From a virus, in IMG/VR virus record IMGVR_UViG_3300032897_000001, positions 36,795-100,794 of that record: 64,000 nt of DNA; one strand, 5' to 3'. The first letter of the stretch is position 1, and each line of letters opens with the position of its first letter. The notes beneath the pieces are model-generated. The model searched no databases. It saw nothing but the letters and a program-made list of their open reading frames with translations, and had not been told where the DNA came from. This document shows positions 76-52,586 of this stretch, in pieces. The position numbers were made by a program, and so were the translations under genes.

Positions 76-130
76 GGCCGAAACACGGGATATCCCGTGT
101 CGCACCGTAAGGCGGTGCCTGATGATGGCC
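76..130 (+). ncRNA. Type II hammerhead ribozyme 1, predicted cleavage after C101
   Basis: GGCC-GAAAC-[ACGGGA-TA-TCCCGT]-GTC-[GCACCG-TAAGG-CGGTGC]-CTGATGA-T-GGCC: complete core (CUGAUGA, GAAA, GUC) with stems I, II and III. Confidence 0.92.
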
Positions 131-149
131 AGAAAGAGGAGACAAACAA

Positions 150-371
150 ATGCGTGTATATTTTAACCCCGATGTGGTCGCGGCATATGGCGATATGGCC
201 GATACCCCTGAATTCAAAGTCGGTTTTATGGATTTCTATTTAGGAGTTCTCAACAATTCTGTGCCGGATCTTTTGCGGGATGAAAAATCCGCAATCGCTT
301 GGCGTTCTGGGTGGCATGCCGCACAAGCGTGCGCCGAAAGTTTTTTGAAAAATATTCAAAAAGACTGTTGA
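150..371 (+). CDS. Hypothetical early protein
   Basis: 73 aa ORF with GAGGAG RBS, directly after hammerhead 1. Confidence 0.7.
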   Translation: MRVYFNPDVVAAYGDMADTPEFKVGFMDFYLGVLNNSVPDLLRDEKSAIAWRSGWHAAQACAESFLKNIQKDC

Positions 372-395
372 CGTTTCCTGGGGAATGCTTATTAT
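340..395 (+). promoter_or_regulatory. Sigma70-type early promoter 1 with A/T-tract upstream element
   Basis: TTTTTTGAAAAATATTCAAAAA, TTGACG (368-373), 16 bp, TATTAT (390-395); homologous to the promoters at 873 and 3383. Confidence 0.75.
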
Positions 396-452
396 CAATC
401 TTGTCAGACGGGCCGGACAGACCGAGCCAGACCAGAAAGAGGGGAGACGGTT

Positions 453-809
453 ATGGGTTCCTATGAAATCATCCGCCACGAAATCAAGAATGTGAAGGCA
501 GCGAAAGCGGCGTTCGCCCGGCTGGAAGCCGCATACAAAATGGTTGATGCGGAATACGTCAACGATGAGTCTTGGCAGGAGTTCCACGGCGTTGAGTACA
601 AATTCGGCGGTTTGGCGTGGTGGAAGGCCCGTGTGCTGGCAATGACCATCAGGATTGAGTGGCAGGCTAGTACCCGCGTGTTCATCTCTCCCCCTTCCGA
701 GGAAAGCCGCAACAAGGACTCTTTTGAAGGTGGTCACCACGAAGTATACACCGATCGCAAGGCATTGGCTGCAGCGCAAATCAAGGTGGCCGCGTTGCTC
801 CGCGGCTAA
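453..809 (+). CDS. Hypothetical early protein
   Basis: 118 aa ORF with GAGGGGAG RBS. Confidence 0.8.
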   Translation: MGSYEIIRHEIKNVKAAKAAFARLEAAYKMVDAEYVNDESWQEFHGVEYKFGGLAWWKARVLAMTIRIEWQASTRVFISPPSEESRNKDSFEGGHHEVYTDRKALAAAQIKVAALLRG

Positions 810-815
810 CCCCAC

Positions 816-851
816 GGCGCCCATGGACTTTGTGGGCGCCAAAAGTTTTTT
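816..851 (+). terminator. Probable intrinsic terminator
   Basis: GGCGCCCAT/GTGGGCGCC hairpin followed by AAAAGTTTTTT, after the stop at 809. Confidence 0.55.
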
Positions 852-901
852 GAAGTTTTTTCAAAAAACTTATTGACCTTTCCTGGGGAATGCCCTAGAG
901 T
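845..901 (+). promoter_or_regulatory. Sigma70-type early promoter 2
   Basis: T6GAA..TTCA6 inverted A/T tract, TTGACC (873-878), 17 bp, TAGAGT (896-901). Confidence 0.8.
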
Positions 902-907
902 AGCTTT

Positions 908-1009
908 GTTGGTTGGAACGAAAGGCGGTGACACGGGCAGGTCCAATGGTAATCGGCAGAACTAGACTCCCTAACGTATGAACGGGAAAGAGTCTGTGAG
1001 AGGCGAAAA
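908..1009 (+). ncRNA. Structured leader RNA, copy A (family unknown)
   Basis: Near-identical to 3418-3519; stem AGACTC(964-969)/GAGTCT(990-995) is replaced by CAGTCC/GGACTG in copy B. Confidence 0.65.
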
Positions 1010-1065
1010 GGTCGAAACGGCAGAGACTCTGCCGTCGTGTCGTAAGGCGGCACCTGATGATGACC
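1010..1065 (+). ncRNA. Type II hammerhead ribozyme 2, predicted cleavage after C1036
   Basis: GGTC-GAAAC-[GGCAGAG-A-CTCTGCC]-GTC-[GTGTCG-TAAGG-CGGCAC]-CTGATGA-T-GACC; stem II covaries (GGTC/GACC). Confidence 0.92.
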
Positions 1066-1081
1066 AAAGGGAGTACCGATC

Positions 1082-1378
1082 ATGAAAAACGAAGCATTTG
1101 AAGCCGCTCTTGCAGCATTCTTGGTTGCCGCACAAGCTTTGTGCGATGCCAGCGGCTCTTACAGCTATACCAAACTGTCTATGCAATACGGGCGCCGTTA
1201 TGTCCGTATCGTCGCAGAACGCTCCGGACAACAGTCCGTATGGGGATTTGTGGACACCACAAACGGGAATGTGCTTAAGGCAGCCAGCTGGAAAGCACCC
1301 GCTACCAAATATGCACGCGGCTGCATTTATGACGAAAATCGGGGTTGTGGCCGGGCAAGGTGGATGGGTGTTGCTTAA
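1082..1378 (+). CDS. Conserved phage hypothetical protein flanked by hammerheads 2 and 3
   Basis: 98 aa, GGGAG RBS; the GFVD..G.VLKAASWKAPA motif recurs in phage proteins. Confidence 0.8.
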   Translation: MKNEAFEAALAAFLVAAQALCDASGSYSYTKLSMQYGRRYVRIVAERSGQQSVWGFVDTTNGNVLKAASWKAPATKYARGCIYDENRGCGRARWMGVA

Positions 1379-1382
1379 AGCA

Positions 1383-1438
1383 GGCCGAAACGGCGGAGAT
1401 TCCGCCGTCGCACCGTAAGGCGGTGCCTGATGATGGCC
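1383..1438 (+). ncRNA. Type II hammerhead ribozyme 3, predicted cleavage after C1409
   Basis: GGCC-GAAAC-[GGCGGA-GAT-TCCGCC]-GTC-[GCACCG-TAAGG-CGGTGC]-CTGATGA-T-GGCC. Confidence 0.92.
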
Positions 1439-1453
1439 AAAAGGAGAAAGACA

Positions 1454-1642
1454 ATGGCAGAATTTATCGTGTCAAAATACAAAATCGGCGACATCGTAAC
1501 TTTGAAAAGCGGCGAGGTGTTGCGCATTACCGCGATCCGCGATCGCGCCCACTACACCAAGGCCGCATATAGTGCGGTGGAAGTCCGTAAGGGTAAGCGT
1601 CCTGGTAAAGAACGTCTCTTCATTGAGGCGGACGCGTCATGA
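1454..1642 (+). CDS. Small hypothetical protein (MAEFIVSKYKIGDIVTLKSG..., SH3/KOW-like)
   Basis: AAGGAG RBS after hammerhead 3; ATG at 1454 chosen over 1430, which lies inside the ribozyme. Confidence 0.75.
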   Translation: MAEFIVSKYKIGDIVTLKSGEVLRITAIRDRAHYTKAAYSAVEVRKGKRPGKERLFIEADAS

Positions 1643-1679
1643 CGCGGCATAACGAAATTCAAAACGCTGGGGAACAAAA

Positions 1680-3311
1680 ATGACACAGACCAAAAGCCAG
1701 ATTGTTGCGGCGGATGTCGCCGCTTTGTTGCGGGCGCGGAACCCGCTGATTTGGATCGTTACCCGGGAAGAATCTCGGGTTGAAACCAACATTGTGCAGG
1801 CCGCGGCTGCAGCGGGATATGGTGCCTGCACATGGGATGTCGCACAAGGCGCACGCACTATCGACGGGGCACGGGTGCCGGGTAGTGATGGCACTGAGGA
1901 TGTCAGCGCCATGTTCGCGATGATAAAGGCACAATCCGAAAATGTGCAGCGTGCACAACGGTGCGTGTGGATCATGCGAGACTTGGCGCCATGGCTGCAA
2001 GGGCCAATCGGCATGGTCACGTTGCGACAGCTTCGGAACCTTGCCCGGGCACTGCCCGGGACCGGGCGGAGCACGTCACAGGCAATCGTCGTGTTGACGA
2101 CTTCCCCAAATGTCCCGGACGAATTGGAGGGACACGCGGTAGTGATCGAATGGCCCTTGCCCGATCGCGAGGAAATTGCGGCAATCCTTGACGCTGCAAT
2201 CACGGCACTGCCCGAAAACGATGAGAAAGGCGTGCCCGTTCGCGGTCCCGCAACACCAATCAATGGGGTTCGCGAGGCAGCAATTGATGCGGCGGTGGGG
2301 CTTTCCGGAGAGGAAGCCGCGGCGTGTTTTGCAAAATCCTTGGTACAGATCCGGAAGATCGACCCGCCGCTGATTACCAAGGAAAAGCGCCGCGTCATCT
2401 CCAAGGCAGGTGTTTTGGAGTGGTTCGAACCGCTTTCTGGCGGGTTGGGCGCTGTGGGTGGTCTCGACAATCTAAAAGATTGGCTGATTGCCCGGCGCGC
2501 CGCTTATTCGCCACGTGCGCGGGCTTATGGTCTGCCAGCGCCAAAAGGTGCACTCCTTGTTGGTGTCCCCGGGTGTGGTAAGTCGCTCACAGCAAAGGCT
2601 GTTGCAACAGCCTGGGGCGTGCCCTTACTTCGGATGGACCTGGGCGCATTGAAGAGTAAATATGTGGGCGAATCCGAAGGGAACCTTCGGAAAGCGTTCC
2701 AGATCATTGAAGCCATGGGGCGGTGCGTCGTGTGGCTGGATGAAATTGAAAAAGCCTTGGCAGGCGCAACGCAAGGCGCTGCAGATGGTGGCGTGTCATC
2801 GGATGCTTTGGGCGCCATTCTAGGGTGGATGCAAGATCGTAGCGGACAGGCGTTTGTCGTAGCTACTGCAAACGACATCTCTGCGCTGCCTCCGGAATTG
2901 CTCCGTAAGGGGCGATTTGATGAAGTGTGGTTCGTTGATTTGCCGAACCCTGATGAACGGGCAAGCATCCTGTCCGCCGCATTACGGGCACACGGTCGGG
3001 ACACCAAAACGCTTGTGTCCAAAGAACAGGATTCCGCTGCTGTAGTTGCAGCAACGGAAGGCTTTTCCGGAGCCGAAATTGCGGCACTGGTTCCGGACGC
3101 CATGTATACGGCATTCGGAGATGGGGAACGGGAAATTACCGTGGATGATCTGTGGTTTGCTGCAAGGCAGACTGTGCCGTCAACCCGGACATCAGCAGAG
3201 AAGATTGAGAAATTACGGGAATGGTCCCGCAGTGGTCGCGCAAGGCTTGCCACACGGACAGTTTCCAAGGCGGAGACTACACAAGGAACCGGGCGCAAAC
3301 TCGACATCTGA
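1680..3311 (+). CDS. AAA+ ATPase, Ycf46-like
   Basis: Walker A GVPGCGKS, Walker B VVWLDEIEK, LPPELLRKGRFDE; N-terminal LLRARNPLIWIVTREE typical of the Ycf46 family. Confidence 0.88.
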   Translation: MTQTKSQIVAADVAALLRARNPLIWIVTREESRVETNIVQAAAAAGYGACTWDVAQGARTIDGARVPGSDGTEDVSAMFAMIKAQSENVQRAQRCVWIMRDLAPWLQGPIGMVTLRQLRNLARALPGTGRSTSQAIVVLTTSPNVPDELEGHAVVIEWPLPDREEIAAILDAAITALPENDEKGVPVRGPATPINGVREAAIDAAVGLSGEEAAACFAKSLVQIRKIDPPLITKEKRRVISKAGVLEWFEPLSGGLGAVGGLDNLKDWLIARRAAYSPRARAYGLPAPKGALLVGVPGCGKSLTAKAVATAWGVPLLRMDLGALKSKYVGESEGNLRKAFQIIEAMGRCVVWLDEIEKALAGATQGAADGGVSSDALGAILGWMQDRSGQAFVVATANDISALPPELLRKGRFDEVWFVDLPNPDERASILSAALRAHGRDTKTLVSKEQDSAAVVAATEGFSGAEIAALVPDAMYTAFGDGEREITVDDLWFAARQTVPSTRTSAEKIEKLREWSRSGRARLATRTVSKAETTQGTGRKLDI

Positions 3312-3317
3312 TGCTGG

Positions 3318-3361
3318 TTAGCGAAGCTGTGGCGGGTGCTGACAGCTTCGCTAAGTTTTTT
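3318..3361 (+). terminator. Intrinsic terminator
   Basis: 13-bp stem TTAGCGAAGCTGT/ACAGCTTCGCTAA followed by GTTTTTT. Confidence 0.7.
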
Positions 3362-3411
3362 GAAAAATATTCAAAAAACTTGTTGACGTTTCCCGAGGGA
3401 ACCCTTAGGAT
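3355..3411 (+). promoter_or_regulatory. Sigma70-type early promoter 3
   Basis: TTTTTTGAAAAATATTCAAAAAA, TTGACG (3383-3388), 17 bp, TAGGAT (3406-3411). Confidence 0.82.
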
Positions 3412-3417
3412 AGCTTT

Positions 3418-3519
3418 ATTAGTTGGAACGAAAGGCGGTGACACGGGCAGGCCCAATGGTAATCGGCAGAACTCAGTCCCCTAACGTAGGAACGGGAAAG
3501 GACTGGTGAGAGGCGAAAA
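3418..3519 (+). ncRNA. Structured leader RNA, copy B
   Basis: Direct repeat of 908-1009 (offset 2510) with compensatory stem changes. Confidence 0.65.
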
Positions 3520-3574
3520 GGTCGAAACGGCGGGTTCCCGCCGTCGTGTCGTGAGGCGGCACCTGATGATGACC
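3520..3574 (+). ncRNA. Type II hammerhead ribozyme 4, predicted cleavage after C3545
   Basis: GGTC-GAAAC-[GGCGGG-TT-CCCGCC]-GTC-[GTGTCG-TGAGG-CGGCAC]-CTGATGA-T-GACC. Confidence 0.92.
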
Positions 3575-3591
3575 AAAGAGGAGCAAACACA

Positions 3592-3762
3592 ATGAATACC
3601 AAAATGAAGAAGTTCAGTGCCGTTGCCTTCAAGGGCGAAGATCGGTTCATGTTTTCGTTCGATTGGCCCAACTGGTATCGTATCGAAGAAGAGGCGCGGC
3701 GCGTGCTGGATGAGAAGGGTTTCCCGGATTGGGAGTTCCGTAGCATCGATATTCGCGCATAA
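3592..3762 (+). CDS. 56 aa hypothetical protein (MNTKMKKFSAVAFKGEDRFMFSFDWPNWYRIEEEARRVLDEKGFPDWEFRSIDIRA), absent from the ORF track
   Basis: GAGGAG RBS, ATG 3592, TAA 3760-3762; fills the space between hammerheads 4 and 5 exactly. Confidence 0.8.
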   Translation: MNTKMKKFSAVAFKGEDRFMFSFDWPNWYRIEEEARRVLDEKGFPDWEFRSIDIRA

Positions 3763-3763
3763 A

Positions 3764-3819
3764 GGCCGAAACGGCGGATATTCCGCCGTCGTGCCGTGAG
3801 GCGGCACCTGATGATGGCC
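3764..3819 (+). ncRNA. Type II hammerhead ribozyme 5, predicted cleavage after C3790
   Basis: GGCC-GAAAC-[GGCGGA-TAT-TCCGCC]-GTC-[GTGCCG-TGAGG-CGGCAC]-CTGATGA-T-GGCC. Confidence 0.92.
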
Positions 3820-3836
3820 GAAAGGAAAGAAAACAC

Positions 3837-4694
3837 ATGGCGATCCAAGCTTCAACGCTACGTCCGGGACTTTTGGTTTCCCTGCGGACCAGCATCCAGG
3901 GCAATGTCAAATATGACAAAATTGACCTGGAAGAAGACCACGTAACAGAAGACGGACAAAGGAAGGCACGTTGGGAGACGGTGCGAACCATTGAAGATCC
4001 GGAAGAACATGAACGCGCCCACAAGGCGCGGGACCGGGTAAAGCTGTTGGTCCGCAGTGCGTGCGTGTTCTCGGAATTCGGACTGCTTTGCCCGGATGGA
4101 AAGACAGGCGTCCTTGATGAACAAATCAAGGAAGCCCGGCGCGTGGCAGACGAGTTCAACGCCACATCCACTATAAGCAAGGTGCGGGTCTATGTGCTTG
4201 TTGGGCGTATCGCGCCCGATGATGCTGAGGCAGTGAAGGCGATTTCCAGTGAAATTCGGGAATTGCTCTCCACAATGGAGACTGGGATTTCAAACCTTGA
4301 TGTGAAGTCCGTGCGTGCGGCTGCAGATCGTGCCAAAAATCTTGGTACAATGCTTTCCCCGGACGCTCAGGAACGCGTTCTAGAAGCTGTGGAAGCGGCG
4401 CGGGCAGTTGCCCGTAAAATTGTGAAGGCTGGGGAACAGGCCGCACAGGAGATAGACAGGACAACGATTGCGCGGATTGCCGCCGCACGAACGATGTTCC
4501 TGGATATCGACACTGTGCCGACCGAAATCGGCACAGCAGAATCGGTTGGGCGTGCTGTTGATCTGGCTCCCGAGGTTCCCGAGGAAGTGCCGACACAGGA
4601 TCAAGTGAAACACGAATCCTCTGTGCTGGATTTGGAACCCGTTGCGGATATCGGTGCAACGGTTGCGCCGCAAACCCGTAACGTCGAATTTTGA
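3837..4694 (+). CDS. Hypothetical helical protein (possibly DUF3150-like)
   Basis: 285 aa, AGGA RBS after hammerhead 5. Confidence 0.75.
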   Translation: MAIQASTLRPGLLVSLRTSIQGNVKYDKIDLEEDHVTEDGQRKARWETVRTIEDPEEHERAHKARDRVKLLVRSACVFSEFGLLCPDGKTGVLDEQIKEARRVADEFNATSTISKVRVYVLVGRIAPDDAEAVKAISSEIRELLSTMETGISNLDVKSVRAAADRAKNLGTMLSPDAQERVLEAVEAARAVARKIVKAGEQAAQEIDRTTIARIAAARTMFLDIDTVPTEIGTAESVGRAVDLAPEVPEEVPTQDQVKHESSVLDLEPVADIGATVAPQTRNVEF

Positions 4695-7419: not shown

Positions 7420-9087
7420 ATGCCGGACTACGTTTCCCGCCGCAAGCCGCGCGCGCATCAAGTGGATGCACTGAAAGCGATTGACGGACAACGTGCTTTT
7501 GCTGTGCTTATGGGCATGCGTTGCGGAAAGAGCAAGGTGATTACCGATGATTTCGGCAAAATGGTCACAGAGCGTCGCGCGCTTGATCTTCTCATAATCG
7601 CTCCGGCAGGCGCATACTTGCCCTGGCAAGGTGCACTGCAAGATGATCTTCCGGAAAGCATCTTCCGGGCGCTCCGAATGCACGTGTGGGTATCGTCTAA
7701 AGCACGGTCTAAAGGCGCACAGAGTGCCCGAGAGGCGTTCATGCTGTACCGTGGCCCGCGGGCACTTATCATCAACACAGAAGCCTTGTCGAGCGTCCTG
7801 ACGGCACGGCAATTCGTTGATGATTTTGTTTGTCAACGGCGGGAGCAGTGCGTTGCGGTGATTGATGAAAGCGTTACGATAAAAAATCCTGAATCAAATG
7901 CCGGAAAATTCGTTGCCGCACGTCTTGGTACAGTGGCGGGATGGCGTCGCATCATGTCAGGACTCGTCTCTCCACGCTCTCCCACAGATTTGTGGAACCA
8001 GTTCAAATTTCTTGATCCGAGTATCCTGGGCTTTGAAGACTTCGTGGCGTTTCGGGCGCGTTACGAAAAAGTCAAATACGTGTGTATGGCGCCCAGTAGC
8101 CTTCTACGGGAAAAATTGCGCGCGTTAGTGGGCGATTTGCAGACGCTGCCGGGCGCCCAAATGGCACTGGTGGCCCGGCGTATCAATCCAGATATCAACC
8201 CACAAGGCATGGGGAGAGCACAGCTTAGGAACTGGATTGACGCTCAAGTTGAAGGCATGCCGCGGGATTCTATGATTGACGCCATTCAACGGTTCGGCGG
8301 ATATGTGCAGAGCGTCGCGGTAGTGGAAGGCTTTCAAAATCTCGGGGAACTGCGGGATAAGATCGCACCCTACTCTTTCCGGGTCCGTCTTGAAGATTGC
8401 TTCGATATGCCCCCCGTGGATTACTCGTTTCGCGATGTCGAGATGACACAGGAACAGGCGCGGATTTATCGCGAGATGAAACAGAATGCTACAGCGATCC
8501 TGGAAAGTCTTGATCACGTAACGGCGACACACGTCGTAACGCAGATGCTCCGATTACACCAAGTGCTGTGCGGCCATGCTGTGGATGAAGAAGGTACGAT
8601 CCACGACGTACCGGAAAAACGTACTGCGGAACTGTGCAGCATGTTGGAAGATTATGATGCAAAAGCAATCATTTGGGTAAGCTATGATCGCAGCATGCAG
8701 AAAGTCGTAGCAGCACTAGAAAAACGATATGGTGCAGGCAGTGTGGCGAGGTTCTGGGGCGGCAATGTCAAGACTCGCGAGGCAGAGGAAGTACTATTCA
8801 AGACTGATCCGCAGTGCCGATTCATGGTGGCAACACCAGACGCGGGCGGGATGGGGCGGGATTGGAGCGTTGCCGATTGGGTGATATACTTTTCCACAAA
8901 GAACAATCTGCACCATCGCTATCAATCCGAGGACCGGGCAAAGGCTGTTGGTAAAATGCGCCCGATCGCATACACGGATATGCGCGTACCCGGAACAGTG
9001 GAGGATAAGAACCTGCAGTGTCTCCGGAATAAAATAGACATGGCAACAGTGATCGCTGGTGACGATTGGAGAAAGTGGCTGATATGA
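7420..9087 (+). CDS. SNF2-family (SF2) DNA helicase
   Basis: PRAHQ, GMRCGKS, VIDES, MSG, C-terminal helicase motifs (GGMG, QSEDRA). Confidence 0.88.
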   Translation: MPDYVSRRKPRAHQVDALKAIDGQRAFAVLMGMRCGKSKVITDDFGKMVTERRALDLLIIAPAGAYLPWQGALQDDLPESIFRALRMHVWVSSKARSKGAQSAREAFMLYRGPRALIINTEALSSVLTARQFVDDFVCQRREQCVAVIDESVTIKNPESNAGKFVAARLGTVAGWRRIMSGLVSPRSPTDLWNQFKFLDPSILGFEDFVAFRARYEKVKYVCMAPSSLLREKLRALVGDLQTLPGAQMALVARRINPDINPQGMGRAQLRNWIDAQVEGMPRDSMIDAIQRFGGYVQSVAVVEGFQNLGELRDKIAPYSFRVRLEDCFDMPPVDYSFRDVEMTQEQARIYREMKQNATAILESLDHVTATHVVTQMLRLHQVLCGHAVDEEGTIHDVPEKRTAELCSMLEDYDAKAIIWVSYDRSMQKVVAALEKRYGAGSVARFWGGNVKTREAEEVLFKTDPQCRFMVATPDAGGMGRDWSVADWVIYFSTKNNLHHRYQSEDRAKAVGKMRPIAYTDMRVPGTVEDKNLQCLRNKIDMATVIAGDDWRKWLI

Positions 9088-13957: not shown

Positions 13958-14596
13958 CTATACTCCTAAATCTATACGCCACAACTTCAACTGTCTGCGA
14001 CGTTCTGCAAGACCGTTGGTGCCACCATTGAGTTTTTTGGTTTCCGTAAGGATGTCATCGGCAAGCGCCGGAGCAAGACAGCCACACGCCACAAAGTCCG
14101 CAACACCGCACTCAAGTGTGTGTTCCGGATCAATGATCAATTCAGGATTTTCGAGCACGTTGAACCCGGCTGCATGTTCATCAAGTACCTTTTGGAGTAG
14201 TTTGACGCCATCCCGCCCAGTAACCTGTGTCAGTCCCGCCCCACGAAAATCATAGCCGTCTGTGCTGGGTGGTGGCGCATTGCCCATGCGTCCACCATAG
14301 GCAATCTCTCCTATCATTCGCTCATTGTGTGCCCAACGATGTGCCATAGCTGGGGTAAAGTGGTTGGGGAAGACTTCAAGCAGGCGTGTCGCTGTGTAAT
14401 TCAGGCTCTCAATCATTTCGAGACCCTGCCCGCACTCTTCGGATGCCTGGGCCATGAAATGTGCGATCGCTAGTGGCGTGTCCAAACCGTATTTATGAAA
14501 CACGGCTGGTGCTGTGGACACGATTCCTTCAAGCAGCCCTGGGATATGCTGATTACCCTGGGGCCAACGCTTCTTCATCAGTTCTATTGTAAGCAC
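13958..14596 (-). CDS. Endolysin, glycoside hydrolase family 19
   Basis: HFMAQ..EE.G, ESLNY, YGGRMGN, DGYDFRGAGLTQVTGR, NGGTNGLAER. Confidence 0.9.
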   Translation of the reverse strand: MLTIELMKKRWPQGNQHIPGLLEGIVSTAPAVFHKYGLDTPLAIAHFMAQASEECGQGLEMIESLNYTATRLLEVFPNHFTPAMAHRWAHNERMIGEIAYGGRMGNAPPPSTDGYDFRGAGLTQVTGRDGVKLLQKVLDEHAAGFNVLENPELIIDPEHTLECGVADFVACGCLAPALADDILTETKKLNGGTNGLAERRRQLKLWRIDLGV

Positions 14597-28170: not shown

Positions 28171-29646
28171 TCACTCCAGTGACGTGTTACTGTGAACTGC
28201 ATACGATCCGACGTTTAGCGCCATCTCAGAAGATGCTGGAGCATGTCCTAATTTGGTATCGGACGTCGTTGTGTTGAAACTCATGCTTCCAATCGTGACA
28301 TTGGAAGCGTTGCTTGTTGTGGTTGCAGACGACACACTACCACGTGTTGCTGCCGCAGCATAGCGCGGCAAATCAAGCGCCGACCGTGGTCCAAGCAGCG
28401 TACGCCCAAAACTATCCGGTGTGCGGTGCTCTAGAGTAGCTGGAACATGTGTGCCGCTAGGCGCTCCAGGTACACTACCTTCTGTTGCTCCAAGAACCCC
28501 TGATGATGGAAGAACGGGGAAAGGTTCCCGAGTGCTTGGCAACAACAAACCCGATCCTGACGCACCTTCTGTTGCAGATGGGAACACACTACGCCACATA
28601 TCACCAAACCAATTTCCAATCCGATTTGGAGGTACAGGCATTCCCCCACGATCAGCATTAGGGGGACGCGTGCCCGATGACGGCGGCACATAAACCGGTG
28701 CTGGCCCTGTACGCGATCCGCCTAACCAAGAAGGTCCCCATGTGGGAGCAGGAATCCCTGTAGGTTGGGCACCGCCACTAGGTCCTTTCAACCATGAAGG
28801 AAAATCAAAGTCCTTTAATTTTGTTAAAATTTCCTGGAGTCCCACAAGTGCCTTGTGCAGCGGGTTTGCTAATTTTTCCACAACTGCAATTCCGAGATTT
28901 GTTGCTGCTGAAGCAACAGCGCTAAAATCTGTCTGCAATTGCTTCATTGCATCTACAGAAGGCTTTGTGATAGTTCCAACACGCTCGCGTTGAAAACGGA
29001 TGGCTTCCTCAAGTCTGCTTCCCGAAGCAAACAGCGTTATTACCTCTTGAGATACCCCAAGAGACTGCAATCTCTGAAGACGCTCGGCAGTAGATTCATT
29101 TAACCGATCTGCTGCAGCCGTCACATCCTTAAGAATTTTGAAGATATCAAAAAGCCGTGTCTTTGCGTCATAATAATTCCGTTCGTCAATACCATAATAT
29201 TGAAGCGTCCTGCGAATGCCTAGATCAACCTCACCCGTGCCGTGTGGCCCCATCTTCTGTAACGCCTCTTGGAGATGGGCCATCCCCTGGAGCAACCTTT
29301 CCCCCGCGCCACTGCCTGCAACAGCCTCTGCGGCCTGTTTCCACGCAGAAAGTTCCTCTACAGTCCCGCCAATGACTTCGGAGAGGTTCCCAAAACTTGT
29401 CGTTGCCTCTGCCGTGTGTTTCGTCCAGTCTATTGCATGCAAAATAGCTTCAACAGAAAGGAACGCCGCAGCAAGCGGCTGAACGACACGAAACAGTCCT
29501 GTGAATACAGCCTCAAGTCCCTTGGCATGTTGTTCTTGTTGATCACGAGCAGACTTGACTTGTGCTGTTATAGCCCTGAGAGACGTGATAAAATCACGTG
29601 AATCAAGTTGTAGTTCTAGCGCAAGTGTTTCAACTACAGTGGCCAT
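28171..29646 (-). CDS. Tape-measure-like protein 2
   Basis: MATVVETLALELQLD N-terminus, helical body, EELSAWKQAAE..G; Pro/Gly-rich tail. Confidence 0.65.
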   Translation of the reverse strand: MATVVETLALELQLDSRDFITSLRAITAQVKSARDQQEQHAKGLEAVFTGLFRVVQPLAAAFLSVEAILHAIDWTKHTAEATTSFGNLSEVIGGTVEELSAWKQAAEAVAGSGAGERLLQGMAHLQEALQKMGPHGTGEVDLGIRRTLQYYGIDERNYYDAKTRLFDIFKILKDVTAAADRLNESTAERLQRLQSLGVSQEVITLFASGSRLEEAIRFQRERVGTITKPSVDAMKQLQTDFSAVASAATNLGIAVVEKLANPLHKALVGLQEILTKLKDFDFPSWLKGPSGGAQPTGIPAPTWGPSWLGGSRTGPAPVYVPPSSGTRPPNADRGGMPVPPNRIGNWFGDMWRSVFPSATEGASGSGLLLPSTREPFPVLPSSGVLGATEGSVPGAPSGTHVPATLEHRTPDSFGRTLLGPRSALDLPRYAAAATRGSVSSATTTSNASNVTIGSMSFNTTTSDTKLGHAPASSEMALNVGSYAVHSNTSLE

Positions 29647-31557
29647 TTAATTCGCCGGCACCAAGTTCAGTTCCCGACCAACATGATTGCGGATATCGTG
29701 TGCGATTCCTGCCGCATCTGTCGCATGTGTGTTGACAATGACCTGATTAACGTGCGCCTCACTACTCTGTTGAATGATGCGTGGCCGGGACAAGCTTGCA
29801 GCCGCTGCCGCAGCACTTGCACCAGTTGCAACATTTGGCTTTCTCAACAAACTTTGCGGAGATGGCACATAAGGTTTGACAGTGAATCTAGAGTCGGTGG
29901 GGAAGTCCCGTCCATAGCCCATCTGTTCAGCAAGTGGTGCGGATATGTCCACACCGCGCCCTGTCCAAGCAGCCGGACCACGGTCGATCAGCGGCGTTAC
30001 AAACTTCCGTCCATCCGGCGTAGTAACCTCATAAAGGTCACCCATGCGTCCGCCACTTGGCAGGGCAATCCCCGCGGTCGTTGCTGCAGAACGTCCTGAA
30101 GCGGTTCTAATGTCGTTGAACATACTTCCACGAACGGCGGAACCTCCACCACCTCCACCGGGTCCTCGCCACTCGAAATGGCCGAAATCCGGGCTTCGCC
30201 AATCTCCCCCGGAAAGCATGTTATTTTTCTTGAGTATCTCACGAAGCGCTTGTGGGTTGTTCTGTGCCCATTCAGAAAATCTGCGGGTAACAACATTGCG
30301 GCTGATTTGCCCATAATCTATCGCAGTGCCATATGCATGTTGAGACCACATCGCGCGACCCGCGATCGTTCGCCGATTGTATGCTCCAATTTCTTCTACA
30401 GGTGCACCTGCAGCAACCAAATCGTCAACGAACCCCTTCATATCAGATGCTGCAGCCCGATTAACTTTCATCGGTCCTGCTGCCGTCTGCACGGTGATAA
30501 GATCGCTCTCCGTTGGCAACGGTCCGCGCATATAGTTAGCGCCACCACGTGTTCCAGTGCTTGGACCACCCGTGGCAGATGGTGTAACAGATGGAGTTGC
30601 TGTTGGCGCTACAGATGGCATTACAGATGGTGCTGCAGTGCTTCCTTTAAAGGACAAAGGAGTTTTAGCAGCAATTCCGCCACCAGTAATCGTATCTATT
30701 TCTTCAACCGTAGATGTCCCAAATACTGCTTTTTCTATACCACTAACCCACTTGATCGCTCTAAGCGTTAGATCGAGCAATTCGTGTAAAAACGGTTCCA
30801 GCATTGTAACAGTGTTAAGCCGCAACAAATCGGCTGCTGTCCGCACATTGGTGATGTCCGTCTGCAACCGTTCCATCGCCTGTACTTGCGGTGTTGTCGG
30901 TGTTCCTAATTTATTTTTCTGTTTTTCCAGTTCCTCTAGAAGCTGTTTCTGTTTTGTCAAAACGACAATATCACCATAAGACAGTGGCAATCCCGGAAAC
31001 CATTGTCGCGCCTCAGCAGGAGATATTCGCTTGCGTTCAAGCTGTTTAGCAGCTTCCTGTAAGATTTGCTCAGGTTCCATATTTGCCAGGGATTTCCCTG
31101 TCAATTGCCCGAGACTATTCAACCATTGTGGAGGGTGCGCCATAACACCCTGCTTTATAGACACAAGGTCCGACTTCATCTTGGCGAGTGTTGCCAAGAT
31201 TCCTGTATCCGTACCCGCAATGGCACGGAACGCCTGTGCATATAATTGCGTGCGTTCTACTGTGGAATCAATGCTCTCAGCAAACCTGCCCATTGCACTG
31301 CCGGCTTTTGCAACATCTTCAATGAGTTTCTTAAATCCTTCAAATGTCAGGACAATGCCAAATAATTTGGCAACACCTTTAAAAACAGAATCAATCTGGA
31401 AATTGACGTTTTTTATGCTGCGCTCAAAATTAGTACCCTGCTGTTCCAATGCACGTTGCGCCGAAGACATCGCGGCCTGTGCCTGCGATTGCCCTTGGAG
31501 CAACGCTGAAATATCAAGCTCAATCTGAATCGTTATAATGTCGTTAACAGTCGCCAC
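29647..31557 (-). CDS. Tape-measure protein with M15 peptidase and RlpA/DPBB-like domains
   Basis: Follows the chaperone; helical N-half; YN.R...SQHAYGTAID...GGDW..PD..HFE (M15); TASG...IDRGP...RGVDIS (DPBB). Confidence 0.8.
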   Translation of the reverse strand: MATVNDIITIQIELDISALLQGQSQAQAAMSSAQRALEQQGTNFERSIKNVNFQIDSVFKGVAKLFGIVLTFEGFKKLIEDVAKAGSAMGRFAESIDSTVERTQLYAQAFRAIAGTDTGILATLAKMKSDLVSIKQGVMAHPPQWLNSLGQLTGKSLANMEPEQILQEAAKQLERKRISPAEARQWFPGLPLSYGDIVVLTKQKQLLEELEKQKNKLGTPTTPQVQAMERLQTDITNVRTAADLLRLNTVTMLEPFLHELLDLTLRAIKWVSGIEKAVFGTSTVEEIDTITGGGIAAKTPLSFKGSTAAPSVMPSVAPTATPSVTPSATGGPSTGTRGGANYMRGPLPTESDLITVQTAAGPMKVNRAAASDMKGFVDDLVAAGAPVEEIGAYNRRTIAGRAMWSQHAYGTAIDYGQISRNVVTRRFSEWAQNNPQALREILKKNNMLSGGDWRSPDFGHFEWRGPGGGGGGSAVRGSMFNDIRTASGRSAATTAGIALPSGGRMGDLYEVTTPDGRKFVTPLIDRGPAAWTGRGVDISAPLAEQMGYGRDFPTDSRFTVKPYVPSPQSLLRKPNVATGASAAAAAASLSRPRIIQQSSEAHVNQVIVNTHATDAAGIAHDIRNHVGRELNLVPAN

Positions 31558-38867: not shown

Positions 38868-39596
38868 CTATGCGGCAATAAAACGAATTGTCTCGCGCGT
38901 TCTCGGATCATCCGGGTAACGATCACCAAGCGCGGCACGCGGCAACGGGCTAAGTTTGTCCCATCCATAAGATGCTGGGGGAACGCTGACACCCCAACGC
39001 GCCCACGCGATCGTGCGGCGCTTTCTCTTTGGCATAAGTCCACGATGGATGTTGCTCGTATCCGAAAGGAACAACGTCCCTGCCGGCCCCAATATGGTCA
39101 CACACTCTCCAGTGTCCGGACGTCCTTGGTGTGTTCCTCGGATAAATTGATGTGGTCCATCGTTCTCATCCACAACGTCCGTGCAGTACATGAATAAAGC
39201 AAGGAAACGCACATCATCAGCGTCTCTGTGCCAATCCTGGATATCTCGCTTAGGCTGATGATTGGGCTCACAATTGAAAGCATTAAACGAATATAACACA
39301 GAAGGAGATTCAAGATAACTTTCCGCTATAGGAATGAAACTTATTGCTGTCTCCAGGAATTCCGGTGCAGATATGACATCCCATATGTCATAACTTGTCC
39401 AGGGATGACTACCAATTGGCACCGGGTCCGGTCTTCCTTGACGGACATGATTCTGATAAACAGGCTTGTTCGATAAGTGCTGTATAAATTCATTCACAAA
39501 AGCAAACCGCTGAGGCAACACAACAGCGCCATCGCGTCGGAGAGTCTCAACGATTTCTGTATTAATCGTAGGACTTTTGTTCTTTGCTTCCAGCAC
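38868..39596 (-). CDS. Fe(II)/2-oxoglutarate dioxygenase, PhyH-like
   Basis: WHRD (HxD), F.Y.TDV....GPH.FI.GTH, G.AGT.F..DT...HRG. Confidence 0.82.
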   Translation of the reverse strand: MLEAKNKSPTINTEIVETLRRDGAVVLPQRFAFVNEFIQHLSNKPVYQNHVRQGRPDPVPIGSHPWTSYDIWDVISAPEFLETAISFIPIAESYLESPSVLYSFNAFNCEPNHQPKRDIQDWHRDADDVRFLALFMYCTDVVDENDGPHQFIRGTHQGRPDTGECVTILGPAGTLFLSDTSNIHRGLMPKRKRRTIAWARWGVSVPPASYGWDKLSPLPRAALGDRYPDDPRTRETIRFIAA

Positions 39597-51023: not shown

Positions 51024-52586
51024 TTATTCGCCAACTGCTACGTCAGCACCTGCCCTACCTTCTTTCACTAGGGCGACGTGATTTCCATGGATGTTTCGCA
51101 TAACGCCATCATACCTCTGTCCCTCGTGTGTGCCTGGCGTCATGTCTGGATCATAGTGATAGCCACACGAGATTTCTTTCTGCTCTCCGGCTTCTATGCG
51201 AGATATAGCGTCGCCATCCCACACACGAAGACTGTTGCGAAGATACGGCGCCTGAAACACCGCATCGGAGCCTGTTGTCCCGACAACAAATTGTTTGGAA
51301 GTTTCTGCATAATCTTCCGCAAACACAGGAACATGTTTGCTCAACAGCGGAAGATTATTGAAGGTGTCTGCGGCCTTTTTCAATTCCACAGGATCACGAA
51401 GAAGTTGATAAACTTGGTTTGGGTTTAACTTCAACTGCTCATATCCTGGGATTTCTCTGCCAATATAAGGACAAATGTTTGCTTTGCTGATATTGGTTAT
51501 CTCTACAATCAAATGTCCGTCTTGCGTTTTTTCCCGGACCGACGCACGATCAAAGGCCAGCCTATCATCCCCAGCTAACCTAGCTTCTATCGCCTCTCCC
51601 CGCTTATCGTATCTGTGCCCGTCAACCTTGCTCACACCCACCGCACACCAATCATTGGCATCAAGCGGCGCCACCACTTTTTCGCATTCATTCTCACCGC
51701 GAAAAGCCTTGCACGTGCCGCAGCGATCGCGGCCTTTTGCAGGGCGGAAATCCACGGCTTCATGCGAAAGTTTGGCTGTGTCCTTGCCCACATCAGCAAC
51801 AGATTCCTGCACTTCCTCCGAGGAAGGTTTCGCGGGTTCCGGTTCTTTGTCCGTGTCGCCCTGTCCTAACATCCCCGTAGCAGGGAAATAGTCCGATTCC
51901 TTCCAGTCGTCTGCGGCACCCAACTTCCTGCTATAAAAAGCATCCATTGTCGTTGTGTTGAACCGCCGTGCCTTGGAAGACTCCTTAAGTGCGCCACGAA
52001 CACCACCACGGGAAAACGATTCATTAATCGCACGGTGATTCCCGCCCAACAACGGCTCCGGTGGATATTTGATAGTATCGCGAAGCTGTCTCTTAGAAGC
52101 TGTGTTTGCGGCCATTTCATCCAACGCAATCTTAGATAATGTCTTAGCTAATCCCGGGTGTAACGGGGAAGGTGGTGCATCAACTGGCGCCCACATATAG
52201 CTTGTGTGTTCTTCATTCAACTTGGGAGTACAAGCACGGCGAATGCTGACACGGTATGTGCGATAATCAATGCCTTCGGGATTGGCGCTGTGGTCAATCT
52301 CTTCTGGCAGTCTCTCGCGTTCTTTCAAAACAAAACCCGTTTCCTCTCGCAACTCCCGTATAACGGCTGCAAGAGGCGTTTCCCCGAGTTCCACCTTACC
52401 CCCGGGGATGCTCCACTCCCCCGGATGATCACCTATTGCGCTGCGCTTTACAAAAAGGACTTTATCATCGGGTGTCGTCAACAAGACGCCCGCAGCATGT
52501 ACAAGTTTATCTTGTGCGCTCTGCCGACGCTTCCCCAGGGGGATGGCGCTGTTTGGTGACAACGCCATTCCAAGCATTTGAGCCAT
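51024..52586 (-). CDS. Prohead protease (DUF2213) fused to N-terminal Nudix and HiPIP-like Cys4 domains
   Basis: Nudix box [22 protein letters not shown]; C-x2-C-x8-C-x11-WC; DUF2213 motifs NISKAN.CPY.G.EIP, EISCGY, GNHVALV..GRAG. Confidence 0.85.

Follow-up and report, generated by a model that had tools for sequence, protein, structure and literature searches.

Putative type II hammerhead ribozymes among the early genes of a contractile-tailed phage, four of them behind a conserved leader

Why would a bacteriophage repeat what looks like the same self-cleaving RNA many times among its early genes, each time just ahead of a ribosome-binding site? The question is raised by a 64,000-nucleotide (nt) stretch of viral DNA, referred to here as the window, which forms the right-hand 64 kb of the 100,794-bp IMG/VR virus record IMGVR_UViG_3300032897_000001 (rated complete by CheckV). 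The genome is that of a contractile-tailed phage with genes for the large terminase, portal, head protease, tail sheath, baseplate and fibre on the minus strand, and with a plus-strand block that holds an AAA+ ATPase, a helicase and numerous small open reading frames (ORFs). Two public DNA runs contain the sequence, both of them wetland metagenomes, and the listing of public runs shows no RNA run that contains it. We consider it about 75 per cent probable, judging from sequence, that the repeated elements are active type II self-cleaving hammerheads that are transcribed with the early genes and standardize the 5′ ends of the messages downstream of them.

The first-pass annotation had counted five hammerhead motifs in the window, and sequence inspection together with a pattern search recovers all five, each with a full hammerhead core. 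The pattern GAAAC..GTC..CTGATGA occurs on the plus strand at 80, 1014, 1387, 3524 and 3768, where chance would be expected to supply ∼0.09 matches per window, and the elements built around it span 76–130, 1010–1065, 1383–1438, 3520–3574 and 3764–3819. The cleavage sites that had been predicted for them, after C101, C1036, C1409, C3545 and C3790, agree with the sequence, and the stem sequences had been quoted correctly. The count of five is right for the window but not for the genome, which has eight copies; three more lie upstream at genome positions 33558, 34917 and 36108, and the window copies are accordingly numbered 4–8 here. All eight fall within 7 kb and on the coding (plus) strand in a genome search with a covariance model built from the eight genomic copies (model R1). 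Copies 4–8 score 77.7, 83.2, 87.1, 79.6 and 85.4 bits against R1. Two other pattern matches, at window position 39204 and genome position 11848, have no hammerhead fold and are not found by R1; the former, the sixth in the window, is attributed to chance.

The positions on which hammerhead catalysis depends (C3 U4 G5 A6 U7 G8 A9, G12 A13 A14, A15.1–U16.1 and C17) are invariant in all eight genomic copies, whose mean identity is 85 per cent. Compensatory changes occur in 7 of the 18 stem pairs, and 99.3 per cent of cells are paired, compared with 31–54 per cent in slid controls. The lowest-energy fold is the hammerhead three-way junction in each of the five window copies, and the order of the parts and the folds give the type II topology, in which stem II is open and loops cap both stem I and stem III. 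Every one of the eight copies has a U inserted after A9; the G10.1–C11.1 pair is still present, and the Rfam model aligns the U as an insertion. On these sequence grounds the eight elements are apparently genuine hammerheads and belong to type II.

They also belong to a wider group of viral elements, a type II subfamily recognizable by the bulged U after A9, an open stem II of 4 bp and the lack of a pseudoknot between loop I and the 3′ tail. Its exact pattern is present in at least 99 IMG/VR contigs, and R1 detects 123 copies in 80 of the pattern-bearing contigs. Covariation is seen at 16 of the 18 pairs when 105 distinct sequences, taken from 80 viral contigs other than this one, are compared; 98.4 per cent of their cells are paired (30–43 per cent in slid controls). 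Nearly all catalytic-core positions are kept in 113 unique relatives, with H17 a C in 111 of them. The extra U is absent from 13 of the 113 unique copies that R1 found in the same contigs; the pattern that gathered the subfamily required this U, and its frequency there is for that reason not informative. The subfamily closes stem I with a UNANG pentaloop, and the residue next to stem II is A in 95 per cent of copies on one side and in 82 per cent on the other. The 6-bp stem I and 4-bp stem II have the geometry of classic hammerheads that use loop–loop contacts, and the conserved A residues flanking stem II may, with loop I, take over the role of the tertiary contact. An invariant core and compensated stems, in the eight copies as in the 105 relatives, indicate selection for a working fold.

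The position of the elements relative to genes is as regular as their structure. An ATG preceded by a Shine–Dalgarno (SD) sequence follows all eight genomic copies at 15–19 nt, and the measured distances in the window (19, 16, 15, 17 and 17 nt for copies 4–8) bear out the earlier statement that every copy there precedes an SD and a start codon. Half of the eight are intercistronic and begin 0–4 nt after a stop codon; copies 4, 6 and 8 do so in the window, 2, 4 and 1 nt past a TAA, just as had been noted for the first, third and fifth elements. The remaining four (window 1010 and 3520, genome 33558 and 34917) stand in 5′ untranslated regions (UTRs), at the end of a promoter-proximal leader described below. 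Comparable placement is seen across the 105 unique subfamily members on other contigs, in 80 per cent of which an SD and start codon follow 8–35 nt downstream and in 86 per cent of which an ORF stops between −6 and +10 nt relative to the ribozyme start. Both hold for 68 per cent, against 1.5 per cent at random positions on the same strand, which implies that the ribozyme typically occupies the entire gap between two genes.

The genes adjoining the ribozymes are small ORFs with no assigned function. Copy 4 is followed by a 73-residue ORF that falls in no family (150–371) and copy 6 by a 62-residue ORF (1454–1642), while a 98-residue ORF (1082–1378; DUF7717, phrog_5014) lies between copies 5 and 6. 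Copies 7 and 8 stand on either side of a 56-residue ORF (ORF56, 3592–3762), and 3′ of copy 8 lies a conserved gene of 285 residues (p3837; 3837–4694, phrog_11021). All are on the plus strand.

It had been proposed that the ribozymes cut one early polycistron into mRNAs. Four copies do lie between cistrons, but there is no single polycistron for them to cut, as the region between 33.4 and 40.2 kb of the genome has several terminators and seven copies of one sigma-70-like promoter module. The module consists of a palindrome, TTTTTTGAA-N5-TTCAAAAAA, followed by TTGACG, a 16–17-nt spacer and a −10 box, and some of its copies are preceded by terminator-like hairpins. In the window a plus-strand module at 341–395 (palindrome TTTTTTGAA-N5-TTCAAAAAG at 341–363, then TTGACG-16-TATTAT at 368–395) has neither leader nor hammerhead after it. 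The module at 846–901 (palindrome 846–868, TTGACC-17-TAGAGT at 873–901) would drive a leader and copy 5, and that at 3356–3411 (palindrome 3356–3378, TTGACG-17-TAGGAT at 3383–3411) a leader and copy 7. A terminator-like hairpin with a T run (816–850, hairpin 816–840) closes the transcription unit before the second module, and a 13-bp terminator-like hairpin with a T run (3318–3362, hairpin 3318–3354), read by eye, lies 3′ of the ATPase gene; the latter was missed by the scanner because its loop exceeds 8 nt. Since four of the ribozymes follow a promoter and a leader, cutting at these would trim the leader and not part cistrons. The palindrome lies directly 5′ of the −35 box at every promoter of the region (seven copies) and could be a regulator operator or an UP-like element; its T run doubles as the tail of the preceding terminator.

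Comparison with related phages suggests how part of the array may have been acquired. Fifteen viral contigs encode the ATPase (543 residues, 1680–3311, plus strand; phrog_8638, PF00004) at 57–66 per cent identity. No hammerhead was found in the fetched flanks of these 15 loci by R1 or by regular expression, and none by Rfam at gathering thresholds in the eight loci that it covered. The ATPase gene and the homologue of p3837 are adjacent in 13 of the 15, these being the 13 that include both genes, with a spacer of ∼35–125 nt in the nine cases measured. In the present phage the distance is 525 nt (window 3312–3836), taken up in order by a terminator, a promoter, a leader, a ribozyme, ORF56 and a second ribozyme. 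Homologues of the small ORFs that adjoin the ribozymes were not found in those relatives. The insert looks, from its sequence, like a moron-type accessory cassette with ribozyme borders, and it fits a ribozyme that lets a new gene enter while the next gene retains its standard 5′ end.

With motif, covariation, strand, placement and insertion in hand, we infer cleavage and its effects on RNA stability and translation as follows. Host RNA polymerase would start at the series of strong sigma-70-like promoters, and each ribozyme would fold during synthesis and cut after its own GUC. The upstream RNA, predicted to end in the stem III hairpin, would by hammerhead chemistry carry one further nucleotide with a 2′,3′-cyclic phosphate. 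The downstream mRNA would have a 5′-hydroxyl (5′-OH) and begin with a flush stem I hairpin that leaves no unpaired nucleotides, then run through CUGAUGAUGRCC, an A-rich spacer and the SD to the start codon; placement and folds support a product with the stem I hairpin first and then an unpaired SD, in keeping with the hairpin-capped mRNAs that had been proposed. Four ribozymes would thereby part neighbouring cistrons and the other four would strip a conserved leader of ∼95–115 nt from the message. Each gene behind a ribozyme would receive the same defined, hairpin-capped 5′ end whatever lay upstream, and small accessory gene cassettes could enter with their neighbours left undisturbed. Only the type II topology leaves both new ends with a hairpin. 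In the RNA decay of Escherichia coli, a flush 5′ hairpin and a 5′-OH evade 5′-end-dependent attack by RNase E, and an RNA that finishes in a 3′ hairpin with a blocked terminus withstands 3′ exonucleases and polyadenylation.

Several observations weigh against this reading. The Rfam hammerhead search that had been suggested as a check gives zero matches in the window at gathering thresholds. Under relaxed limits (E-values of 10 in the window and 0.05 upstream) RF02276 (Hammerhead_II) picks up four of the eight copies, three of the five in the window and one of the three upstream, the other four not being listed at these limits. The scores, 32.3 bits for copy 6, 31.7 for copy 8, 22.7 for copy 7 and 30.5 for the upstream copy, are below the 37-bit gathering cut-off because of the U after A9, the 4-bp open stem II and the missing pseudoknot between loop I and the 3′ tail. 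The U is itself a departure from the hammerhead consensus, right beside the core. The pseudoknot, which has at least 4 bp in most RF02276 members, gives most type II hammerheads their fast cleavage; in the subfamily considered here, complementarity of at least 4 between loop I and the tail occurs in 29 per cent of members and in 31 per cent when tails are permuted, and a pseudoknot of loop I with the 5′ flank likewise shows no excess over permuted controls. The downstream SD is already unpaired in the uncut lowest-energy fold of all five window copies, so that cleavage would concern RNA ends and the uncoupling of genes, not the unmasking of the SD. Finally, a 5′-OH is not protective in every host, as in Bacillus RNase J1 degrades the 5′-OH product of the glmS ribozyme. 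The argument from 5′-OH stability is therefore not supported in the form in which it was first made, as it depends on the host.

The leader behind which four of the eight ribozymes stand deserves separate consideration. It is ∼95 nt long and begins just after the promoter. The two window copies, at 917–1009 and 3427–3519 (plus strand), score 102 and 103.5 bits against a covariance model of the leader (model R2) and are predicted to be released by copies 5 and 7, respectively; copies outside the window are in L002 and L003 (1404–1496). The four leaders are 96 per cent identical over 93 nt, and the promoter and ribozyme sequences on either side of them vary more. Within this conserved sequence one 5-bp helix is wholly exchanged in one copy, from AGACU/AGUCU to CAGUC/GACUG (the second window copy), and the helix encloses a conserved CCC/UAACGUAYGAAC/GGG stem-loop with an AAAG bulge; in the first window copy the full hairpin reads AGACU/CCC/UAACGUAUGAAC/GGG/AAAG/AGUCU. 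The shared 5′ part of the leader has an SD-like box, ACGAAAGG(A/C)GGUG, followed by AUG-N3-AAYCGGC-N-GAAC. The predicted folding energy of the leader is no better than that of shuffled sequence. Because the genes 3′ of the four leaders are mutually unrelated, the leader does not appear to be gene-specific.

The hairpin recurs elsewhere. Six contigs of IMG/VR and nine metagenome contigs have its exact loop motif, and two others have a one-base variant, which amounts to about ten lineages; in 14 leader-hairpin sequences all five of the outer pairs covary, with 94 per cent of cells paired against 11–51 per cent in slid controls. One contig, L130, has a helix of only 3 bp and is a doubtful member. 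Good promoters lie ∼80–100 nt upstream of the motif in several of the other lineages, and in most lineages the SD of the first gene, which starts at +8 to +27, either coincides with or adjoins the 3′ side of the hairpin or the purine-rich tail of the hairpin. In one metagenomic lineage, made up of contigs L171 and L172, the leader is followed by a full hammerhead core that folds as type III with a 2-bp stem II (L171 2456–2512, plus strand; L172 1060–1122, minus strand); the start codon of the next gene in L172 comes 3 nt past stem III, and its SD falls within loop II. Rfam does not call the hammerhead-like element of either contig. The first gene after the leader in L125 (8488–8724), L172 (847–1068) and L174 (666–890), all on the minus strand, encodes a similar protein of ∼75 residues with the motif ..IDENGKFV..; none of the four post-leader genes of the present phage resembles it.

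Searches for the leader in other settings returned nothing comparable. R2 found zero leaders in the 80 hammerhead-bearing loci and the 15 ATPase-related loci, and Rfam has no match to the leader on the plus strand of the window at E-values up to 10 and none at the 11 other motif loci at E-values up to 0.01. Prokaryote genomes gave no exact match to the motif and four relaxed matches that have no complementary helix and were judged to be chance. Scans with 17-mers and 15-mers gave only chance matches inside coding regions. The leader was also considered, and rejected, as a conserved peptide mini-ORF; an AUG is usually present, but by eye the ORF runs to 2–23 codons and its frame relative to the hairpin varies. 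It is possible that the leader is a cis-acting translational element that was uncoupled in this phage by the insertion of a ribozyme, or else a separately acting RNA that the ribozyme releases.

These observations bear on what the ribozymes are for, and indeed on whether they are ribozymes. Structured intergenic hairpins that merely resemble hammerheads, such as nuclease or protein sites, might be expected to score below the Rfam cut-off, to tolerate an extra U beside the core and to lack the tertiary pseudoknot. They would hardly be expected to keep a catalytic core in all eight copies, and nearly all of its positions in 113 relatives, while the helices change freely; the 13 of 113 copies in the same contigs that do without the extra U, and the chance expectation of 0.09 matches per window, likewise leave this explanation very little room. 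It is easier to suppose, if still improbable, that the ribozymes chiefly mark the borders of mobile moron-like cassettes, having spread with the cassettes or by duplication within the genome and being tolerated, not selected, as far as gene expression is concerned. The elements are after all absent from the 15 relatives that share the ATPase, the ATPase/p3837 pair is split here by a 525-nt cassette, the eight copies average 85 per cent identity, and the genes they flank are small and of no known function, as the literature describes for prokaryotic hammerheads. Mere tolerance is difficult to square with an invariant core and compensated stems in eight copies and 105 relatives, which indicate selection for a working fold, or with a stop-to-SD placement that stays tight across unrelated contigs. 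Border marking is in any case compatible with ribozymes that standardize 5′ ends, because an insulating border would permit the safe insertion of cassettes.

A different possibility concerns only the four promoter-linked ribozymes, for which the product that matters could be the leader itself. The hammerhead would then set the 3′ end of an RNA of ∼150 nt, made up of the leader and the stem III hairpin with its cyclic phosphate, which four strong promoters would produce and which would act alone; it might, for instance, regulate as a small RNA, serve as a decoy for a protein or act on the transcribing polymerase. The 96 per cent identity of the leaders between more variable flanks, the fully compensated 5-bp helix, the recurrence of the hairpin with five covarying outer pairs in about ten other viral and metagenomic lineages, the type III hammerhead behind the leader of L171 and L172, and the unrelated genes that follow, which imply a leader that is not gene-specific, all speak for it. 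We nevertheless hold it only tentatively, as most lineages with the leader are ribozyme-less and have it abutting the SD or start (+8 to +27), in the manner of a cis-acting translational element, and as its folding energy is no better than that of shuffled sequence and neither a partner nor a target nor, in Rfam searches of the window and of the 11 other loci, a known family was found for it. It is conceivable, though we would not lean on it, that promoter, leader and hammerhead form a new phage expression module, in which the leader is deliberately cut free to act as a separate RNA or co-transcriptional signal, with expression of the mRNA independent of it. Alternatively, the adjacent hammerhead might be switched by the leader or by something that binds the leader, as a natural allosteric ribozyme gating early expression. 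In the lowest-energy folds of leader plus ribozyme the leader segment UGGUAAUCGGCAG does pair with the ribozyme segment CUGAUGAUGACCA in both window copies, and leader-linked ribozymes have a weaker stem II (GGUC/GACC or GGUC/GGCC). Such a switch is very unlikely, however, because the pairing between leader and core is at chance level: 27–30 per cent of shuffled leaders pair equally well with the same segment. The leader segment is moreover conserved in ribozyme-less lineages and, by eye, has no complement to the core of the type III ribozyme of L171.

Some features of the genome lie apart from the array. The left arm of the genome, upstream of the window, holds three tRNA genes (L185; genome coordinates 8961–9041, 13972–14045 and 14100–14173), and the window holds none. 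A 520-residue ORF at window 51027–52586 (minus strand) joins an N-terminal match to NUDIX hydrolase (residues 27–153) to a C-terminal match to head maturation protease (residues 341–519). Two adjoining minus-strand ORFs, at 28174–29646 and 29650–31557, match the same tail families (lytic tail/tape measure) over their first ∼260–275 residues and have the appearance of a tandem duplication or of alternative forms.

Eight near-identical ribozymes occur together at this locus, some between cistrons and the others where a leader ends, which makes it a compact place for tests of what phage hammerheads do; each of the two settings puts the same predicted hairpin-first, 5′-OH start upstream of a start codon (the ribozyme ending 15–19 nt ahead of it). 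Members of this ribozyme subfamily as a rule take up the interval between stop codon and SD, and that placement, together with the cassette in an otherwise conserved gene pair, allows the idea of a natural insulator for inserted genes to be tested directly. A separate lead is offered by the leader motif, a covarying hairpin whose loop is invariant, which lies at the 5′ end of phage early transcripts and is absent from Rfam; were it cut free and to have a role of its own, it would be a phage RNA made by a ribozyme and functioning in its own right. The array itself is of modest interest, and the unit of leader and ribozyme is the less ordinary part.

Neither the idea of transcript processing nor the array layout is new, both going back to 2011 and the study that first described natural type II hammerheads (Perreault et al. 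2011; PMC3088659). Several hammerheads were found there often to flank single genes in prophages, and it was proposed that they process long transcripts into single-gene mRNAs; clustered examples are given from Clostridium scindens, Azorhizobium caulinodans and Agrobacterium tumefaciens (Fig. 3 of PMC3088659), and three clustered arrays cleave in vitro, one of them (A. tumefaciens) in vivo. The same work places the hammerhead of haloviruses HF1/HF2 13 nt ahead of a start codon, with a mapped 5′ end no more than three nucleotides from where it cleaves (Perreault et al. 2011). Three type II hammerheads near phage-like genes also cleave in Desulfovibrio cells. Later reviews still treat what prokaryotic hammerheads do as an unsettled matter and link them to small non-conserved ORFs and to phages, and a literature search for functional work on phage hammerheads after 2011 found only the 2011 proposal and reviews.

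Given these published arrays, the array described here belongs to a known kind of element. With the clustered prophage hammerheads it shares a set of ribozymes in one orientation around small non-conserved genes; it differs in that eight copies are packed into 7 kb, half of them placed where a promoter-proximal leader ends, and in that there are many promoters in place of one long transcript. The HHphage element of HF1/HF2 stands before the first early gene of its transcript, like the four 5′-UTR ribozymes of this phage, but it belongs to an archaeal virus, is present in a single copy, depends on high salt and has core insertions near C3. With RF02276 the phage copies share the catalytic core, the conserved A before stem II, the phage contexts and the order of parts (stem II strand, GAAA, stem III hairpin, UH cut site, stem I hairpin, CUGAUGA, stem II strand), and they differ from it in the U between A9 and G10.1, a stem II of 4 bp instead of 1–2 bp, the missing pseudoknot and their low scores. 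An added nucleotide at the A9/G10.1 junction, in an otherwise consensus core, is said to have been reported by De la Pena and Flores in 2001 for viroid hammerheads, which are of type III and come from plants.

Functionally the closest parallels may be sought in systems that cut early transcripts or insulate genes. The early transcript of T7 is cut at intercistronic hairpins by host RNase III into mRNAs that keep a terminal hairpin, as is proposed here, but those sites are double-stranded, are cut by a host protein and leave 5′-phosphate and 3′-OH ends, where self-cutting with 5′-OH and cyclic phosphate ends is predicted for the present elements. The synthetic insulator RiboJ, which Lou and colleagues are said to have introduced in 2012, reportedly combines the sTRSV hammerhead with a hairpin in the 5′ UTR; lying between promoter and ribosome-binding site, its hammerhead reportedly removes the promoter-derived leader and fixes the 5′ end of the message, much as is proposed for this phage. 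RiboJ is, by the same accounts, engineered and of type III, and the ribozyme body stays on the mRNA. Its extra hairpin serves to free the ribosome-binding site, whereas the SD of the phage messages is unpaired even before the ribozyme would cut.

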